Under the pieces are notes generated by a model. That model had not been told where the DNA came from, did no database searches, and was given only the letters and a program-made list of their open reading frames with translations. From a virus, in the UHGV virus genome UHGV-0333071: 24,121 nucleotides of DNA. One strand, given 5' to 3'. Shown here in pieces: positions 8,390 to 17,467 of this stretch; within the stretch, counting starts at the first letter, position 1; the number at the start of each line of letters is the position of its first letter. The position numbers and the translations under genes are program-made.

Positions 8390-8919
8390 ATCAGATGCAC
8401 CCCTACGCGTGGTTGCCGCAGCATGTTTCGCATCACGTTGGCCGCCTCGGCCAGCAGGCTGGCGCGGGTGTCCTGGCTTTCCTGCCCCGGATGCGATTCA
8501 CGCCGCCCGATGGTGGCGAACTCCCCCAGTAAATCGGCCTTTGCGCGGGCGTAGACCGCTTTTTTGTACTGGGCTGTTAACTGGGTTTCGTCGCCCATCT
8601 TTGCACCCGGTACATCTGCGGCCCGCTCGCAGGCTTTCGCGTTCCAGTACGTAACCACGTCGGCCAGCGCGTCGTTTACCTCCGCAATAGCTGCCAGCAG
8701 GGCCACGCCTGCGGTTTCTGGCGGCAGATCACCGGGCAGCGTGCGCACCTTCTGAAACTCGGCCAGATCGAGATCGGGCCAGAATGTCACGCCGTTGGTG
8801 ATCGCTGTTGGCGTCACCGTCACTGGCTTGCCGCTGATACTGAAACTTGGGCCACTCATTGGCGTACCTCGGTTTTGTAATAGAAACGGGCTAACGGGTT
8901 CCACGGCCAACAACCGCAT
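8386..8919 (-). CDS. L: Head completion/stabilisation protein (gpL-like)
   Basis: 177-aa ORF immediately downstream of the small terminase gene, as in P2 O-N-M-L. Confidence 0.65.
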   Translation of the reverse strand: MRLLAVEPVSPFLLQNRGTPMSGPSFSISGKPVTVTPTAITNGVTFWPDLDLAEFQKVRTLPGDLPPETAGVALLAAIAEVNDALADVVTYWNAKACERAADVPGAKMGDETQLTAQYKKAVYARAKADLLGEFATIGRRESHPGQESQDTRASLLAEAANVMRNMLRQPRVGVHLI

Positions 8920-8961
8920 GGTTGATGCCTCCCCCGCGCCCGTCCCGGCTTGCGGGAGTCG

Positions 8962-9663
8962 TTAAAGCTGGGTCAGGCCGTTAATCCTGGCGCGGATTTT
9001 TTCGCGCATGGTCTTAACTCCGGCGTTTTTGTTGTACGCCGCCGCCTGGGCCAAAAGGGCGTCGGCCTGCTCCAGCGTGTTCACATCATCCACGGCAGTG
9101 GCACGCGGCTGCCCCTTCTCGTCGCGCAGCAGGTAAAGACCGGCGAACTTGAACCACTTCGCGTTAATGTCTTCGTGCAAACGCCACTTTTCGCGGATGT
9201 TTTCAAACGTGCGGCTGAAATAGGGTTCGATGCTGTGACCGGCTTCCGCCTGCATGATCGCCCACTCCAGCACCGTATCGGCCACAAAGGCGGGCAGGTT
9301 GCTTTTGAAGTTCTCCGGCGTGGCCTGGCTCTCACTGATAGCCACGTCAGCCCAGTCCAGCGCCTTGCCCATTTCCCCCGTATCGAACAGCCAGATCACA
9401 CAGTAAACCAGGGCCGGATTGGCAAAGCGGGCATCACCGGCAAGGTATGCTTCAACGGTCGGCATCCAGCGCGGCAAAAGGACATCGCGTTTCATATCCA
9501 TGCGGTCTGCACGCGTCAGGCTGCGAAGTCGTTCAACATCCCTTTCCAGCTCCAGCATTTGAATGTGAAAGCTGACCGGCGATGCCGTCAGGGCTTCGCA
9601 CTTATCCAGCGCCTTTGCGGCTTTTACGCGTGCTCGGTGTCTCTGACACGGGGTCATAGCCAT
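8962..9663 (-). CDS. M: Terminase small (endonuclease) subunit, gpM-like
   Basis: 233 aa, positioned after the capsid gene; size and sequence fit the P2 gpM family. Confidence 0.75.
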   Translation of the reverse strand: MAMTPCQRHRARVKAAKALDKCEALTASPVSFHIQMLELERDVERLRSLTRADRMDMKRDVLLPRWMPTVEAYLAGDARFANPALVYCVIWLFDTGEMGKALDWADVAISESQATPENFKSNLPAFVADTVLEWAIMQAEAGHSIEPYFSRTFENIREKWRLHEDINAKWFKFAGLYLLRDEKGQPRATAVDDVNTLEQADALLAQAAAYNKNAGVKTMREKIRARINGLTQL

Positions 9664-9665
9664 TT

Positions 9666-10688
9666 TTACGCGCCCCCTCCCGGTGCAACTTCGCCGGTCG
9701 CAAGGGTGATTTTGTCGAATGCCGCATACAGCTCGTCATGCTCGACGCCGTAACCTTCCATGCGCAGATAGTTGTTCTCGAAGCGCTTGCGGTCGTCGTT
9801 CCATTCCGCTTTACGCTTACGTGTACCCTGCTGGGTGTAGATATGCAGGTTGTCCAGCGTGGTGACGATAAGGCGGCCCTCCGGCATAAACGGCGGGGTG
9901 TACACGGTACGGCCAGCAATCTGGCGGCCAATAAGCTGCGCGGCAACTTTCTCAGTCGGGCGATCAATCTTATTCATCATCGTGGTGGCGTCGTTGCCGA
10001 TAAGGTCAGCGGAAGCCAGCACGACCAGGCGCGGGTCATTGCGGAATGGCTCATAAATGCAGGTGTGCACCAGGTCCGTGACTGCCGCGTCCAGCCCAAT
10101 AAAGTCAGCCCCTGACGCACCGATAGTGACGGCATCAGAAATAATCTGCTCAGATGAACGGTCTTTAACGATTTTGTGCCAGCCGATGTTGACGTCTTCG
10201 CCGTTCGGGTTGGCTTCCGGGTCGGTGTCTTCTGCAACACTCGTACCGTTGAACGCCACGCGTAACATGTCCAGCGCGAAAGATTCGTTGCTGAATGCCT
10301 GAATACGCTGGAAAAACTCCTCTTCGCTGCCCGCGTTCGCCCAGACAACCAGCAGGGAGTAAGGCAGATACGAACCAGAATCCGTTTCTACCAACTTGTA
10401 CTCGTTACCGGACACACCCAGGGCGCGAGAGAAACGACCGTCTTTTTTACGTCCGGTATAAATACCCGGTTTACCGGTGCTGACCACCTGGCCGGTGATC
10501 TGGTCCACATCCAGCACGTTAGGCAGCAGACGCAGGAACTCAGAACTTTGCAGCAGGGCATTGCGCAGCTGGGTTTCTTTCGGATTGGTCAGCGAGAAGT
10601 AGCGCGACGTGTCCACCTGGCCGTTAGCTTTCGCCAGGCCTGCGGCAAACTTACGCAGCATCTGCTCTGCTTTTGGGGTTAATTGCAT
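9666..10688 (-). CDS. N: Major capsid protein, gpN-like
   Basis: 340 aa between scaffold and small terminase; P2-family major capsid size and synteny. Confidence 0.8.
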   Translation of the reverse strand: MQLTPKAEQMLRKFAAGLAKANGQVDTSRYFSLTNPKETQLRNALLQSSEFLRLLPNVLDVDQITGQVVSTGKPGIYTGRKKDGRFSRALGVSGNEYKLVETDSGSYLPYSLLVVWANAGSEEEFFQRIQAFSNESFALDMLRVAFNGTSVAEDTDPEANPNGEDVNIGWHKIVKDRSSEQIISDAVTIGASGADFIGLDAAVTDLVHTCIYEPFRNDPRLVVLASADLIGNDATTMMNKIDRPTEKVAAQLIGRQIAGRTVYTPPFMPEGRLIVTTLDNLHIYTQQGTRKRKAEWNDDRKRFENNYLRMEGYGVEHDELYAAFDKITLATGEVAPGGGA

Positions 10689-10716
10689 AATCTTTTATTC
10701 CTGAAAAGAATGGCTG

Positions 10717-11775
10717 TTAAACAAACTCAAACGGTTCTTTGCTTCCGCCCGGCGCACTGCCAGGGCGGCGAGTATTACCGTTTTCCATCGCTGACAACTT
10801 GGTCAGGACGGTAGTCAGCTGCGTGGTCAGGTTGTCCATCTGGTTGCCAGCTTGGCGACGGGCGGAAAAGTCATGTCGACGGCTGGCGCGTGGGCGCTTC
10901 GCTGGCGTCACATTGAATGACTTCATGACTTTTGCCAGGTTGGCTTTAGCGGCGCTGAATTCTTCCGCTTTGACTTCGTCTTCCGGGTTTTCGATAACGT
11001 CCTGCGCTAGCTCGGCCACCTCGTCGGCAGCATCAGCGATCTGGGCGGCAACATCTGCCACCACATCGGCGGCCTGTTCCGGGGTATCAACCGTGTCAGC
11101 GTCACCCGCTGCGGCGTCTTTACCGCTTTTAAGCAGATCCAGCATTTGCTGAATGAGCGCTTTTAATTCTTCCATTTCTTCTCCGTCGCCCTCGGTGGGC
11201 TTATCAGTGTTTGGCTCTGGCGTTGGCGTAAAATCTTTACTGGCCGAAAATAAACGCGACCAGAAAGAATCTTTTTTATCCGGTTTACTTGTCTGTAATT
11301 TTCCTAAGCTGAATGTTTCCAGACTCCCGCGCTCGGCGTCTTTTTCTTCACCGGCTAAAACAAATTTAAGTTTTTCCGTTCCCAGACTTGCCGGAATATC
11401 CGTTACAGCCAGCCCGAAAAGATATTCACGACCACTGCCTGCAAAATCAGTGACAAATTCGGCTGACGTAAATAACTTTTGCCCCATACGGTTGGCATCA
11501 ATTAAAAATTGATTCGGGATTAACTGGGCATATAACTTCGTGACGTCACCTTCCGTTTCCACTTTCAGCGCGTCCACTTCCCCCAGATTGCAGGTAAATT
11601 CACGTTCGCCGATATCGTATTGCGGGTGATGCGGCCAAATCATGGCAGTGTAGGTTTTGCGGGTGTAGGTTTCTGCCGCATCAATCAACCATTGAGGTTC
11701 AATGGTGCGACCGTCCACAGCCTGTCCAGATGTGGCAATACATAGCCAATCCGTGCGGTAATGAGATTGCGGCAT
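10717..11775 (-). CDS. O: Capsid scaffolding protein, gpO-like
   Basis: 352 aa with an acidic, Ala-rich coiled-coil C-terminal half (..DAAAGDADTVDTPEQAADVVADVAAQIADAADEVAELAQD..), first gene of the leftward late operon and divergent from P. Confidence 0.8.
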   Translation of the reverse strand: MPQSHYRTDWLCIATSGQAVDGRTIEPQWLIDAAETYTRKTYTAMIWPHHPQYDIGEREFTCNLGEVDALKVETEGDVTKLYAQLIPNQFLIDANRMGQKLFTSAEFVTDFAGSGREYLFGLAVTDIPASLGTEKLKFVLAGEEKDAERGSLETFSLGKLQTSKPDKKDSFWSRLFSASKDFTPTPEPNTDKPTEGDGEEMEELKALIQQMLDLLKSGKDAAAGDADTVDTPEQAADVVADVAAQIADAADEVAELAQDVIENPEDEVKAEEFSAAKANLAKVMKSFNVTPAKRPRASRRHDFSARRQAGNQMDNLTTQLTTVLTKLSAMENGNTRRPGSAPGGSKEPFEFV

Positions 11776-11952
11776 AGCTGACCTTTAATAATGAATTTAA
11801 ATAACAATGATTCGGTTGTGGTGGTCAGTATTGCGAATTGATTAAAACAGCGCGACCGCTTTATTTCTTATGTATTCGGTTATAACTGGATAGCCACTCT
11901 TTACCGATATTTAATTATCAATTCTGCATAATAATCACGCCATAATAGCCGC
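11776..11952. promoter_or_regulatory. Divergent late promoter region between O (leftward) and P (rightward)
   Basis: 177-bp AT-rich non-coding gap between the divergent O and P genes, the position of the Ogr-dependent late promoters in P2. Individual promoter elements not assigned. Confidence 0.4.
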
Positions 11953-13764
11953 ATGGCTAAATATTCCGATGAATTAAAAGAAGCGGCCCGCACGCTTTAT
12001 ATAAAAAGCTGGACGCCGAAAGATATTGCGCAGGAACTGAATATTCCACCGCGTACAATTTACCACTGGGCTGACGTCGGGAAGTGGGCATCACTGCTGC
12101 CTGTTGAATCGGTGGAAAATGTCATCGCCCGCCGTATCGACCAGCTCTCCCGCCGCGAGAAAAAAACAGCGCTGGAACTGGAAGAACTGCGCGATCTGAT
12201 TGCTCACCATGTGAAACTCATGGCGCAGCGCAGCAAGCACGCCGAAAAGCTGGCAGAAATTCAGGCTCAGAAAGCGGCTTATGATGGTGAAGGGTACTGC
12301 CTCAGCAGCGCAGGCGGGGAACCAGGGGAAAGAAAGCGCCGGTATAAGAAAAACGACGTTTCCGGTATTACAGCGGAAATGCTCGACACCTGGGCGCGGG
12401 AACATCTCTTCGAGTACCAGCTGCACTGCCGCGAACATAAAGGCGAAGACTGGCGCTTCATTCTGAAAAGCCGACAGGTCGGCATGACCTATTATTTCGC
12501 CTGGGAGGCATTCGAAGATGCTGTCATTACCGGTGATAACCAGGTCTTTTTCTCTGCAAGCCGCTCCCAGTCTGAAATCTTCCGTGAATACATCGTCCAG
12601 ATCGCCCAGAACCATTTCGGCGTGACGCTGACGGGTAAAAATATCCGCCTCAGCAACGGCGCAATACTGCGCTTTTTGTCCACGAACGCCAGCACCGCGC
12701 AGGGCTTTAACGGCCACCTGTATGGCGATGAGGTTTTCTGGATCCCGAAATTCACGCGCCTGCACGAAGTTGCCAGCGCAATGGCGACGCATAACAAATA
12801 CCGGACGACCTACTTTTCGACGCCCAGCGCGAAAACGCACCAGGCTTACCCGGTCTGGACTGGCGAAGCCTGGCGCGGGGACGACCCGAAACGCAAAGGT
12901 GTGGCGTTCCCGACAGAAAGCGAAATGCGCCAGGGTATTCTCTGCCCGGACCAGATCTGGCGCTACATCATCACGATGGAAGACGCTATCGAAGGTGGCC
13001 TCGGTGCGCTTGTCGATATTGAACGGCTGCGCAACAAATACAGCCCGACCGCGTTCGCCATGCTCTACATGTGCCAGTTCGTTGACAGTAAGGACGCGGT
13101 TTTCAAGTTCTCCGCGCTTGTCGGCTGTGAAGTGGACCGGGCCACATGGGGCGACTTTGATCTGACAGCTGCGCGGCCCTTCGGCAATCGCGAAGTATGG
13201 GCAGGCTTTGACCCGTCACGATCCGGCGACAACTCCACCTTTGTGTTAATCGCGCCCCCCATAGAGGACGGCGAGCGCTTCCGCGTGCTGGCCGTCTGGC
13301 AATGGCAGGGCTTTAACTTCAGCTGGCAGGCCGACCAGATAAAGCAGCTTATGCGCCGCTTTAACATCACTTACATCGGGATCGATACAACCGGCATAGG
13401 TAAGGGCGTTTATGACCTGGTCAGCAAGTTTGCACCTCGCGAAGCCACACCCATTCTTTACAGCGTCGAAAGCAAAAACCGCCTGGTAATGAAGATGATC
13501 GACGTTGTCGAGCGTAAACGCATCGAATGGGCAAAAGACGCCGTAGACGAAACGAACAAAGAGCGCGTCGAAATTCCGGCCAGCTTTATGGCTATCCGGC
13601 GCACGACAACCAACAGCGGCAACGCGCTGACGTTTGTTGCCGAACGTTCAGACGCGACCGGCCATGCAGATGTTTTCTTCGCTATCTCGCACGCCGTAAT
13701 TAACGAACCTATCGATCACGAATATGACCGCCCATCGGGCTGGTACTTTGGGAAAGCAGCATGA
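11953..13764 (+). CDS. P: Terminase large (ATPase) subunit, gpP-like
   Basis: 603-aa ORF, divergent from O and followed by the portal gene with 4-nt overlap. Confidence 0.85.
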   Translation: MAKYSDELKEAARTLYIKSWTPKDIAQELNIPPRTIYHWADVGKWASLLPVESVENVIARRIDQLSRREKKTALELEELRDLIAHHVKLMAQRSKHAEKLAEIQAQKAAYDGEGYCLSSAGGEPGERKRRYKKNDVSGITAEMLDTWAREHLFEYQLHCREHKGEDWRFILKSRQVGMTYYFAWEAFEDAVITGDNQVFFSASRSQSEIFREYIVQIAQNHFGVTLTGKNIRLSNGAILRFLSTNASTAQGFNGHLYGDEVFWIPKFTRLHEVASAMATHNKYRTTYFSTPSAKTHQAYPVWTGEAWRGDDPKRKGVAFPTESEMRQGILCPDQIWRYIITMEDAIEGGLGALVDIERLRNKYSPTAFAMLYMCQFVDSKDAVFKFSALVGCEVDRATWGDFDLTAARPFGNREVWAGFDPSRSGDNSTFVLIAPPIEDGERFRVLAVWQWQGFNFSWQADQIKQLMRRFNITYIGIDTTGIGKGVYDLVSKFAPREATPILYSVESKNRLVMKMIDVVERKRIEWAKDAVDETNKERVEIPASFMAIRRTTTNSGNALTFVAERSDATGHADVFFAISHAVINEPIDHEYDRPSGWYFGKAA

Positions 13765-14822
13765 CAAAGAAACAGCGTAATAATAAAAAATTCGGGTCCA
13801 TGACCGGCAGCAGGGTTGAAACCTTCACGCCAGGGCGCGGAAGCGTGATCACATTTGGCGAACCAGAACCCATCCTGACGACCGGCACGGATTATCACAA
13901 TATCTGGTATGACAATGAGTATGACCACTGGCGACTTCCGATTGATCGCCTGGCGCTGGCCCAGTTGCCGAACCTTAACGGCCAGCATGGTGGCGTACTG
14001 TATGCGCGGCGCAATATGGTTGCCGGTGGCTACATCGGCGGCGGCCTGACGCCGGACCAGGTCGAACAGGCTGTCTTTGATTACCTGCTGTTTGGTGACG
14101 TCGCTATCCTGAAAATTCGTAACGTATTCGGGGAAGTGATCGACCTGCTGCCGTTGCCGTCGCTGTATCTGCGCTGCCGGAAAGACGGCTCTTTTGCTGT
14201 TCTGCAGGAAGGGCCAGCGCTTATCTATGACCCGGAAGACATCGTATTCTTTAAAATGTACGACCCGCGCCAGCAAGTGTATGGCCTGCCTGACTATATC
14301 GGCGGCATCCATTCGGTGTTACTCAACAGTGAGGCAACCATCTTCCGACGCCGTTACTACAATAACGGGGCGCACATGGGCTTTATTCTCTATACCAGCG
14401 ATCCAAATCTGACGCTGGAAATGGAAAACGAAATCAAAGAGAAGATCGCCCAGTCCAAAGGGCTGGGTAACTTCCGCAATATGTTTATCAACATCCCGAA
14501 GGGCGACCCGGAAGGGGTTAAAATCATGCCAGTGGGCGAAGTCAGCGCAAAGGATGAATTCGCCAATATCAAAGGGATCACCGCACAGGATATCTTTACC
14601 GCCCACCGTTTCCCCGCAGGCCTGGCAGGTATCATCCCGACCAACGGCGCGGTAATGGGCAACCCTGAAACCGCCCGCACAACCTATCGCAAGGATGAAG
14701 TTATCCCCTTGCAGCGCAAGCTAATGAACGGCGTCAACAATGACCCGGAGATCCCCGCACACTTGCACCTGGTTTTTGACGTGGATATCCCGGCAATTAC
14801 CACCGAAAAGGGCGAAAAATGA
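13761..14822 (+). CDS. Q: Portal protein, gpQ-like
   Basis: 353-aa ORF downstream of P; P2-type P-then-Q order, size as P2 gpQ. Confidence 0.85.
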   Translation: MTKKQRNNKKFGSMTGSRVETFTPGRGSVITFGEPEPILTTGTDYHNIWYDNEYDHWRLPIDRLALAQLPNLNGQHGGVLYARRNMVAGGYIGGGLTPDQVEQAVFDYLLFGDVAILKIRNVFGEVIDLLPLPSLYLRCRKDGSFAVLQEGPALIYDPEDIVFFKMYDPRQQVYGLPDYIGGIHSVLLNSEATIFRRRYYNNGAHMGFILYTSDPNLTLEMENEIKEKIAQSKGLGNFRNMFINIPKGDPEGVKIMPVGEVSAKDEFANIKGITAQDIFTAHRFPAGLAGIIPTNGAVMGNPETARTTYRKDEVIPLQRKLMNGVNNDPEIPAHLHLVFDVDIPAITTEKGEK

Positions 14823-15145
14823 GCGCAGTTAAGTTAAAATCATCCCCATTGTTAGCAATGGCGTGCGGGATGGTGAACATGCGAGTTTTTAAAATTAAAT
14901 GCCCAGAATGCGGCTCACCGGCCATCATTCGTAAATCTGACTGGAAAGACAAAAAACTGGCTGATTTATACTGCGCCTGCACGGAAGTTGAATGCGGCCA
15001 CACCTTTGTTTTTAACGCCCAGTTTTCACATACCCTTAGCCCCAGCGGGCTGACTGGCAACAAGCTGGTTAAATTCCTGATTGACCGGCTCAAGCCGGAA
15101 GAAAAACAAATTGCTTTAGATTTGTTGAAAGGATTAAATGTATAA
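14819..15145 (+). CDS. ogr: Ogr/Delta-family zinc-finger late transcription activator
   Basis: Exact C-x2-C-x22-C-x4-C spacing (CPEC...22 aa...C-TEVE-C), the Ogr/Delta/186-B signature. Start is either 14819 (ATGA overlap with the Q stop) or the internal ATG at 14879 (MRVFKIKCPECG..). Confidence 0.8.
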   Translation: MSAVKLKSSPLLAMACGMVNMRVFKIKCPECGSPAIIRKSDWKDKKLADLYCACTEVECGHTFVFNAQFSHTLSPSGLTGNKLVKFLIDRLKPEEKQIALDLLKGLNV

Positions 15146-15171
15146 AAAGCTCCCCAGTTGGAGAGCTTTTT
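15144..15171. terminator. Bidirectional intrinsic terminator
   Basis: aaaaagctcccca / tggagagcttttt form an inverted repeat (about 11-13 bp stem, one mismatch) flanked by an A-run on one side and a T-run on the other, in the 33-bp gap between the convergent ogr-like and ATPase genes. Confidence 0.6.
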
Positions 15172-15178
15172 AAAATAG

Positions 15179-17467
15179 TTACACTGAGCCACTATATATA
15201 ATATTCAACGCCCTTGTGCAATATGCAATTAACTCCCCTGGGAATATAGGCTCATTTGCAGCATTAGCATTGGTATCATGATGAAATTTACCAGCATAGC
15301 TATTTATTTCATTTAACTCATTTGTAATTGACGAGGCATGGTGAAGAGGTGAACCAGGTTGTGACGCAACTATCGCCTGTACTATTTCACCAAACAACTT
15401 ACCTGATGGGATATGATTAGGGAATCGACGATGTAAATACCCCTCTAACAATGGACGAATTGCAGTAGCAACGTCTTTTTCATTATATGGTTCACCATTG
15501 ACATATCCACTTACTAATCGATGATTTTTATAATAAGCAGACTCGCATTCAATATCTAGATCAAGAGAAACAAGAGTACTAAACTGCCCATGCGTATGAA
15601 CAACTTTAATTAGAGACAAAAGATTCGGATCATTCAACTTCTTGATGAAGTCATCTCTTAACTTTTTAATAAAAAAAGCATCATGTGCTAAGATTATTAA
15701 CTGTTTGCAGTTATCACATATTTTTTTAAGTTCGTTTACTGTCTGTTGCTTTCTGTGTGTATCAAAACTACACATAGGGTCATCAATTAGTACAATTTTA
15801 TTAGTAAGATTTTGATCTTCAGATATGACAGCAATGAAAAATGCAAATGCAAGAGTGCGTTTGTCACCTTCGCTTAAACAGGTTTTGAACCCAGCATCTT
15901 CACCTTGTAATGTAATTCTATTTCCTCGAAGATTTAATGCATACTCGGTTCTAGGCTCTCCTGTGCCACGATAGTTATAGGTTACTTCTTCAATAGTAAA
16001 GGCTGCTCCAAACTTCTGAAGTAAAATATTAATCGATGATTCATATCGACCAAGAGTTGCCTGCATTATGGTATTAAGAGTGTTTTTTTTCGCTTCCTTT
16101 TCTGCTAAAGCCGCTGTTTCAACAGCTTTAGCAGCAGTATATTCATTAATCAAGTTAACTACAGCTGGAGAATATCGAGTCTTTATAGCATTGAGTCGAT
16201 TATTTTCTTCAGTCAATGTCTGAATATTAATATTTTCCAAGCTGGTTTTATAATCATCAATCTGGTTATTCAAAATGTCTAGTTGTTCATTAAACTCAGT
16301 AACACACTGAACCATTTTATCAATAATTGCCTGGCACTCACCTTCAAATTTTTGTTCTAACTTATCCAAAGGTGATGCAGTTTTTATTTTCACACAATCG
16401 GTTAATATTCCATCTAGTGAGGTTTTAAGCTCATCTAGCTTATTAATATCTAATGATGGTGTGTTTAGTGATAAGTATTCCCCCCAAGAAAGAATGTTTT
16501 CAGTAATGCTAATCTGCTCTTGGTTTTTTAATGGTATATTAAAGGATGACAATATGGCCGCTTTTTTGTTTTCTAATAAGCTTATCTCTTTAATGAAATT
16601 TCTATATTCTGTATTAAAGTATGTTTTATAAGCATCTATAAGACTAAGTCCTTCCACTGTTTGCGCGCAAAAAGGACAAGTATCTTCTTTTAAAAATTTC
16701 TGCCCATCACTTATCCATTTTTGAGCACCATCATCAGATAAATGCTGGAAATGTGCATCAACTACAGAACTTGCATTCTCATCAATTTTATCAACAGTTG
16801 TATACATTACATTAAAGAAATTCTGTATATCCACTGTGAATTCAGTCAGCTTTTTAAGTTTGTTTTTATTTTTAATAACACTAATTCTTTGGGACTTACC
16901 TTGTTCCACTAAGTTAGCAGCGATCAAATCATCAATATTATCAATACTTCTCAGGCGTATATATTGAGATAGGGTATAATGACCACGATAACCAGTTAAT
17001 CTTGCCTCTACATTTCTTTTTGCAGTAGTACAATTTGTGGCATGTTGACTAGCTGCATCAAACTCTATCTTTGCAGCAACAGCCGACTGACCTAACGCAA
17101 AACTTAGGAGGTTTTTTCTTTGCCCTGGTGTAATTTCACCTCCAGAATAAACATTCGTATCTATAAAATCCAAATCAAAAACATGAAAATCAGTAAACTT
17201 CCTATCCCATTGATTATTTTCAAACTTAGCTCTATTTCCTTGACTAAATTGCAGATCAATAAATTGATCTACACTAGAGTTAAATGTCTTTCTGCTCAAT
17301 AACACATTAGACGCTGAGTGTGTATAAGAACGCATTATTGATGCAAGAGTTGACTTCCCCCTTCCATTATCGCCATAAATTAATGATATTTTTTTGAATT
17401 GAATGGCTGCAGGACGGATGTCGTTAAAGAGACCAACACCAGTAATCTTATGAATTCTTTCTAACAT
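15179..17467 (-). CDS. Rad50/SMC-like ABC ATPase with CxxC zinc-hook coiled-coil and C-terminal nuclease-like domain (RloC-like anticodon-nuclease candidate); putative anti-phage defence protein
   Basis: 762-aa ORF in strongly AT-rich DNA. Walker A GDNGRGKST (aa 32-40), long coiled-coil insertion with CPFC at aa 264-267 (nt 16667-16678), ABC signature LSEGDKR (aa 531-537), Walker B IVLIDDP (aa 558-564), H-loop LAHD (aa 593-596), then about 150 aa containing R671-x3-E675 and HH709-710. AAGGA RBS 7 nt upstream. Confidence 0.6.
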   Translation of the reverse strand: MLERIHKITGVGLFNDIRPAAIQFKKISLIYGDNGRGKSTLASIMRSYTHSASNVLLSRKTFNSSVDQFIDLQFSQGNRAKFENNQWDRKFTDFHVFDLDFIDTNVYSGGEITPGQRKNLLSFALGQSAVAAKIEFDAASQHATNCTTAKRNVEARLTGYRGHYTLSQYIRLRSIDNIDDLIAANLVEQGKSQRISVIKNKNKLKKLTEFTVDIQNFFNVMYTTVDKIDENASSVVDAHFQHLSDDGAQKWISDGQKFLKEDTCPFCAQTVEGLSLIDAYKTYFNTEYRNFIKEISLLENKKAAILSSFNIPLKNQEQISITENILSWGEYLSLNTPSLDINKLDELKTSLDGILTDCVKIKTASPLDKLEQKFEGECQAIIDKMVQCVTEFNEQLDILNNQIDDYKTSLENINIQTLTEENNRLNAIKTRYSPAVVNLINEYTAAKAVETAALAEKEAKKNTLNTIMQATLGRYESSINILLQKFGAAFTIEEVTYNYRGTGEPRTEYALNLRGNRITLQGEDAGFKTCLSEGDKRTLAFAFFIAVISEDQNLTNKIVLIDDPMCSFDTHRKQQTVNELKKICDNCKQLIILAHDAFFIKKLRDDFIKKLNDPNLLSLIKVVHTHGQFSTLVSLDLDIECESAYYKNHRLVSGYVNGEPYNEKDVATAIRPLLEGYLHRRFPNHIPSGKLFGEIVQAIVASQPGSPLHHASSITNELNEINSYAGKFHHDTNANAANEPIFPGELIAYCTRALNIIYSGSV

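Follow-up and report, generated by a model that had tools for sequence, protein, structure and literature searches.

The gene at positions 14819-15145 of the window (the whole 24,121-nt stretch of viral DNA analyzed here, UHGV-0333071) encodes a genuine Ogr/Delta-family zinc-finger protein. Its location directly behind the portal gene is, as judged from the compared genomes, the rule for the HP1/K139-like branch of Peduoviridae and not an unusual feature. Within the model developed below, the gene probably acts as an Ogr/Delta-family activator of late transcription in an HP1/K139-type phage of the P2 family. Neither the identity nor the position of the gene is new: near-identical phages and RefSeq genomes of E. 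coli already carry its annotation, and the placement has been published for this lineage. What appears mildly new is an upstream start codon predicted to be coupled to gene Q, together with a LexA box that the enterobacterial clade has apparently lost.

The window is a P2-family prophage (Peduoviridae, Irrigatiovirus-like) of the HP1/K139 type. It is approx. 97% identical to Salmonella phages SW5, SW3 and SI7, and its positions 1-15103 are collinear with SW5 (Peduoviridae, Irrigatiovirus) at 96.8% DNA identity. The regulator shared by these three Irrigatiovirus phages (QEI25482.1) is 96.5% identical to the protein of the window. SW5 shares with the window the neighboring genes P and Q as well as the ATGA overlap, whereas the last ~14 codons of the ogr homologue and all downstream DNA differ. 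The Q-type ORF is annotated as a portal protein gene in SW5, ESSI-2 and vB_YenM_324 (YenM324). The genes for scaffold (O), capsid (N), small terminase (M) and tail proteins lie on the minus strand, divergent from P. Features of the distinguished genes and sites are summarized in Table 1. An antisense ORF at 14797-15192 (131 aa) has no match in PHROGs or NCBIfam and was dismissed as spurious.

Table 1. Genes and predicted sequence elements in the P-Q-ogr region of the window.
Feature	Coordinates	Strand	Evidence or remark
Large terminase subunit (gpP-like)	11953..13764	+	Pfam Terminase_6N, Terminase_6C, Terminase_5
Portal protein (gpQ-like)	13761..14822	+	Pfam Phage_portal PF04860, E 1.3e-13
Ogr/Delta-type gene, long form, 108 aa	14819..15145	+	ATG overlaps Q stop
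Core (short) form, 88 aa, MRVFKIKCPEC start	14879..15145	+	ATG in all relatives but L037 (GTG)
Zinc-finger core, C28 codon to C59 codon	14900..14995	+	C-x2-C-x22-C-x4-C
Candidate -10, TAAAAT	14835..14840	+	Exact in 66/68 unique relatives
Shine-Dalgarno-like GGGA	14867..14870	+	8 nt ahead of internal ATG; GG/GGAG block conserved
Putative -10-like AATACT, O-operon side	11827..11832	-	Within conserved block CAGTATTGCGAATT
Candidate activator-binding dyad, between divergent O and P operons	11875..11898		18-sequence alignment
Putative -10-like CATAAT, P-operon side	11941..11946	+	6 nt ahead of P start codon
Hairpin and U-run right after the stop of the Ogr/Delta-type gene	15149..15171		-14.7 kcal/mol, z = -2.9; GCTCCCCAGTTGGAGAGCTTTTT

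Assignment of the gene to the Ogr/Delta family is based on its zinc finger. A sequence-only reading of this DNA had recognized a finger of the C-x2-C-x22-C-x4-C type, and this motif is indeed present, formed by C28, C31, C54 and C59 of the 108-aa protein, which has an additional cysteine at position 52. The Pfam family Ogr_Delta (PF04606) matches the protein with 62.9 bits (E 2.6e-17; gathering score 26.3), with residues 27-73 aligned to model positions 1-47 of 47. A second match, to PHROG 603 ('transcriptional regulator'), extends over residues 1-105 (E 3.7e-41). The four cysteines are invariant across eight aligned homologues, P2 Ogr among them, and the spacing of the finger is likewise conserved. 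One finger cysteine is missing in only two of 80 related loci, replaced by Arg in L042 and by Asn in L036. P2 Ogr, protein B of phage 186 and P4 Delta belong to the same Pfam family and carry a finger of identical spacing.

P2 Ogr activates late promoters by contacting the RNA polymerase alpha subunit. The P2-Ogr equivalog model of NCBIfam (NF007241) gives the 108-aa protein 19.8 bits and its cut-off of 116 is not reached, so attributing the same late-activator function to this protein is an extrapolation from the common domain. The low score, together with only 25% amino acid identity to P2 Ogr and the absence of P2-type binding sites (see below), would also suit an Ogr-fold zinc finger that has another job, such as regulation of the adjacent variable/defence region or of lysogeny, and literature searches turned up no experiments on the Ogr homologues found in the HP1-like branch. 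We consider such a role very improbable: the gene is the sole Ogr-like gene in the complete genome of SW5, a viable phage with P2-type late genes, its position is fixed relative to P-Q while the region downstream is variable, and the annotations of SW5 and K139 contain no other candidate late activator.

The sequence-only reading also counted about 45 'extra' residues behind the last cysteine. There are 49 residues following C59, but P2 Ogr, a 72-aa protein whose last cysteine is at position 35, has 37 of its own, so none of them can be regarded as extra. The two tails are unrelated in sequence. A tail motif, SHTLSPS...L..L.PE..Q, is kept in SW5, ESSI-2, YenM324, K139, phiO18P and F108. The post-finger tail is thus no addition but a sequence specific to the subgroup (in fuller form SHTLSPS..T…L…L.PE..Q..L), conserved from Salmonella to Vibrio and Pasteurella phages. 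The homologues in K139 (Orf13), phiO18P, F108, HP1/HP2 and Smhb1 fall into the same subfamily as the protein of the window, with 34-52% identity. They share with it the conserved C-terminal tail, and their genes likewise lie behind the portal gene in the orientation of P and Q.

The position of the gene was compared across relatives. In seven named phages, each representing another genus – SW5 (Irrigatiovirus), ESSI-2 (Seongnamvirus), vB_YenM_324 (Tresduoquattuorvirus), K139, phiO18P, F108 and HP1 – the genes P, Q and the ogr homologue lie on one strand and are followed by a variable region and then by a replication gene. The K139 homologue is orf13, annotated as 'zinc-finger protein'. A sequence match to the Ogr homologue adjoins the portal gene in HP2 as well. 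Relatives belonging to the clade of the window are encoded at 80 IMG/VR loci (57-99% identity), and in 78 of these the portal stop codon is found 37-80 nt upstream of the conserved core ATG; the remaining two comprise one in-frame Q-ogr fusion and one locus without a portal match. Among K139- and F108-type loci (metagenomic or prophage), a portal gene of the same orientation precedes the ogr homologue in 64 of 67, at a distance that is usually 58-112 nt but larger where small genes have been inserted. An orthologue, WP_000247826.1, is present in E. coli RefSeq genomes as 'ogr/Delta-like zinc finger family protein'. Placement of the Ogr homologue after the portal gene has also been given for K139 and Smhb1 in a 2021 paper (PMC8537503).

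Placement next to the portal gene had been highlighted by the sequence-only reading as a departure from P2, and a comparison with related prophages had been suggested. The departure is real, since according to the P2 record ogr follows the tail gene D, beside att. It is, however, not noteworthy, because the post-portal site is the norm in all of the sets listed above and is typical of the lineage. To search for a second Ogr-like gene, a profile built from the alignment of homologues and the cysteine pattern were run against all six frames of the window, of the complete 30-kb SW5 genome and of P2. Only the known genes were found. Neither the window nor SW5 has a second ogr at the canonical or any other position, so the gene is not a paralogue of a canonical copy. 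An additional cysteine-pattern match inside the Dam methylase gene was rejected, being out of frame and without profile support.

Deviating loci were also encountered. The HP1 and HP2 records carry no annotation of the Ogr homologue (L007:3440-3720 in HP1 strain c1; 9329-9553 in HP2), and in the HP1 reference it is split across two frames just past the first cysteine pair, as the result of either a frameshift or a sequencing error. In the metagenomic relative L036 (L036:1043-2400) a deletion has taken out the Q stop codon and the upstream ATG, generating the portal-ogr in-frame fusion, which keeps TAAAAT and the internal ATG.

The DNA target of P2 Ogr has the form TGT-N12-ACA. This pattern occurs four times in the window, which is the level expected by chance, and none of the four lies in the O-P intergenic region (11776-11952) or in any other intergenic DNA; the target of the protein of the window is therefore a guess. 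An alignment of 18 diverse O-P intergenic regions revealed a conserved dyad with the consensus TTCGG(A/T)TAT…CCGAA (TTCGG-N14-CCGAA). In the window its left half, TTCGG, is invariant and its right half is degenerate (CCACT); a perfect right half, CCGAA, is found in K139, ESSI-2 and YenM324. The 33-kb K139 genome contains a single perfect TTCGG-N14-CCGAA, located exactly in the P16/P17 intergenic region. Since the K139 annotation shows just one long late operon besides P-Q, one site may be enough for its late programme. From this conservation we infer that the Ogr homologue of the window may bind a dyad of the TTCGG type.

On both sides of the dyad, conserved -10-like hexamers could be distinguished (Table 1). 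The ATAAT of the P-side hexamer is invariant, or nearly so, in the 18 aligned sequences. By our own count, the predicted O-side and P-side transcription starts each lie approx. 66 bp from the dyad centre; in the P2 record, one annotated site between pO and pP is approx. 55 bp from each start. Ahead of the terminase ATG, a Shine-Dalgarno sequence is missing from many relatives, and the arrangement hints at a P mRNA that is leaderless or has a very short leader.

Dual transcription of P2 ogr was reportedly described by Birkeland, Lindqvist and Christie (J Bacteriol 1991). As a small single-copy gene that comes last in a late operon and shares its terminator, P2 ogr resembles the gene of the window. 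In the P2 record a single terminator is entered 'for ogr transcript and F operon', and an own promoter of ogr is placed in the D-ogr gap. In the window, no terminator was found between Q and the gene, and the hairpin located right after the gene's stop codon is probably a two-way terminator serving both P-Q-ogr and the convergent gene at 15179-17467. Read-through from the P promoter, and hence feedback, is therefore likely. A palindrome at 14846-14861 was considered as a terminator and rejected, as it has no U-run on the plus strand and is not conserved. The positive feedback loop that had been proposed from co-transcription with P-Q is reasonable, although P2 already has the same topology.

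It had further been suggested that an internal promoter within the last ~150 bp of Q drives early expression of the gene. A scan of positions 11500-15400 for the sigma-70 consensus gave no plus-strand match in or after Q, and a strong promoter within the end of Q is thus unsupported. A promoter of the gene's own is better founded, provided that it is moved downstream: a near-invariant -10-like hexamer, TAAAAT, lies 13-18 nt past the Q stop codon, so that a -35 element, if there is one, would lie within the last codons of Q. The -35 region is poor, GCGAAA matching the consensus at 3/6 positions when read by eye. Of the elements ahead of the core ATG, TAAAAT is conserved best; it precedes this ATG by 38 nt, and its two exceptions (TAGAAT and TAAGAT) are changed at hexamer positions 3-4 alone. 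In the long reading frame the hexamer falls on Leu-Lys-Ser codons, and the usual synonymous alternatives are absent from the 68 unique sequences. It is also kept in L046, which has no long ORF, in L053, where the hexamer itself overlaps the Q stop codon and is read in a different frame, and in the fusion locus L036. Near-invariance, lack of synonymous variants and retention outside the long frame argue for selection on the DNA and not on the peptide. An own promoter just after the Q stop is therefore best described as probable, weak and unproven. When the DNA upstream of the gene was compared with the repressor/cox switch region, with the O-P region and with the remaining intergenic DNA, the operator-like words in common were scattered 8-9-mers, none of them convincing.

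A separate promoter is more readily recognized in deeper relatives. The phages K139, phiO18P and F108, and others related to them, have a -10 hexamer (TATGAT, TATCAT, TAATAT, TAGAAT or TAAAAT) 34-40 nt before the ATG, a range that includes the 38 nt of the window. Overlapping this promoter, 8-11 nt upstream of the hexamer and approx. 64 nt before the ATG, there is a perfect gamma-proteobacterial LexA box, CTGT-N8-ACAG. Such a box is present in about 48 of the 56 unique upstream regions of K139-, phiO18P- and F108-like phages (including L091-L154), for example at L004:3435-3450 (K139), L005:3428 and L006:3429. K139 has exactly two perfect LexA boxes in 33 kb, one at the promoter annotated for orf12 and one at that of orf13, the latter (P13) reading CTGTACAAAAACACAG. 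These boxes suggest direct SOS control of the late activator in K139-like, phiO18P and F108-like phages; no paper describing SOS/LexA control of an Ogr homologue was found.

The K139-type genes, which belong to Vibrio, Aeromonas and Pasteurellaceae members, are separated from Q by a gap of 65-270 nt, which carries the own promoter and the perfect LexA box. In the window this gap has closed, there is no LexA box, and an upstream ATG is predicted to be coupled to the Q stop. No CTGT-N8-ACAG was detected near the gene of the window, even with up to one mismatch. None of the 68 unique members of its clade has a LexA box at the matching site, because the end of Q now fills that space; the -10 hexamer alone is retained.

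Two start codons of the gene are conserved. The first ATG (14819-14821) overlaps the Q stop codon TGA (14820-14822) as ATGA, in agreement with the sequence-only reading, which had the gene directly following Q, with start and stop overlapping if the first ATG is used. An ATG beside or overlapping the Q stop (ATGA, TGATG or TAAAATG) occurs in nearly all of the 80 relatives, in differing surrounding sequence; the exceptions are three loci with TTG, one in which a gap of 13 nt intervenes and one without an upstream start. The spacer between the Q stop and the core ATG is 56 or 50 nt long in 46 of 49 unique sequences. The frame of the gene is free of stop codons in 47/49 unique spacers, compared with 22/49 and 2/49 for the other two frames.

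The internal, core ATG is the only start in K139, phiO18P and L046, and the F108 start is one codon further upstream. It is preceded by a conserved Shine-Dalgarno-like block (Table 1), which takes the strong form GGGAGG in L053 and phiO18P. The N-terminal extension added by the upstream start (17-20 residues, 20 in the window) shows poor conservation as protein, so that the long form may be unimportant or not be produced at all. The databases are in conflict over this start codon, which the present comparison brings to light: the GenBank records of SW5, ESSI-2 and YenM324 use an ORF of 106-108 aa overlapping the Q stop (108 aa in the form seen here), while RefSeq/PGAP annotates the E. coli orthologue (L090:4571-4846) as a 91-aa protein starting 48 nt past the Q stop, i.e. 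9 nt upstream of the core ATG (14870 in the window).

If the RefSeq choice is followed, the short form alone would be made (from ATG 14879, or from 14870), the gene would be a separate transcription unit and the upstream ATG would have no function. This would accord with the variable residues of the extension and with K139, phiO18P, F108 and L046, all of which have the short form only. We hold it to be unlikely, as a start codon at the Q stop recurs in differing contexts across lineages of 57-100% identity, the stop-free spacers are strongly biased towards the frame of the gene, and Q and the gene are not separated by a terminator. The GenBank choice leads to the opposite scheme, in which there is no own promoter and only the 108-aa form is produced, coupled to the portal gene, with basal activity of the P promoter starting expression and feedback amplifying it. 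The recurrent ATG at the Q stop, the open frame behind it and the empty sigma-70 scan are compatible with this scheme, but conservation of TAAAAT at the DNA level (also in L046 and L053), universal retention of the internal start with its Shine-Dalgarno sequence, the clearly separate promoter at the matching site of deeper relatives and the poorly conserved extension peptide make it distinctly improbable.

The preferred model, in which the gene encodes a late activator with two starts and its own promoter, would operate as follows. The protein would bind the TTCGG-N14-CCGAA-type dyad, situated midway between the O and P promoters, and activate both, in parallel with P2 Ogr at TGT-N12-ACA. The first molecules would come from the weak own promoter of the gene, with TAAAAT as its -10 element, and this transcript would be translated from the internal ATG to give the 88-aa product. 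Once the P promoter fires, the gene would also be read as the third cistron of P-Q-ogr, with ribosomes handed from the Q stop to the overlapping ATG. Positive feedback would result, in the same topology as that of P2 ogr, which ends the late F operon.

We also put forward, as a tentative possibility that we would not yet favour, that the enterobacterial clade has been rewired: LexA control would have been lost, the gene drawn up to the portal gene and two forms of the protein made. If this is true, the short form, expressed from the residual weak promoter, would start the late programme, and the longer form, translationally coupled to the portal protein, would lock the programme on via feedback. 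Late control in HP1/K139-type phages in any case becomes clearer from the comparison: a single activator gene ends the P-Q operon, a single dyad lies between the divergent pair of late promoters and, in a large number of relatives, the activator's promoter bears a host LexA box.

The variable region starts directly behind the gene. The convergent minus-strand gene at 15179-17467 encodes a 762-aa AAA_13 ATPase, assigned by PADLOC to the candidate defence family PDC-S06 (E 3e-76). Its G+C content is approx. 33%, versus approx. 55% for the phage, and SW5 has a DNA methylase gene at the same spot. The junction with SW5, at position 15103, falls within the final 14 codons of the ogr homologue and thus alters its C-terminal residues. 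The 8-mer ATTCGGTT occurs on the plus strand at 2077, 11810, 11874 and 17497, giving four copies versus approx. 1.07 expected, a count reached in one of 100 shuffles. It includes the left half of the dyad. Three of the copies are intergenic: the O-P region contains two of them, and the third precedes the PDC-S06 gene.

The region behind the ogr homologue differs in another respect between subclades. In that of the window, the DNA separating the ogr homologue from the replication gene has no LexA box; in that of ESSI-2 and YenM324, this unannotated stretch carries a perfect box, at L002:7773-7788 (ESSI-2), at L003:7501-7516 (YenM324) and approx. 205 nt past the ogr stop in L047-L089. This box may mark the promoter of a small SOS-controlled gene, e.g. 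one encoding a Tum-like antirepressor.
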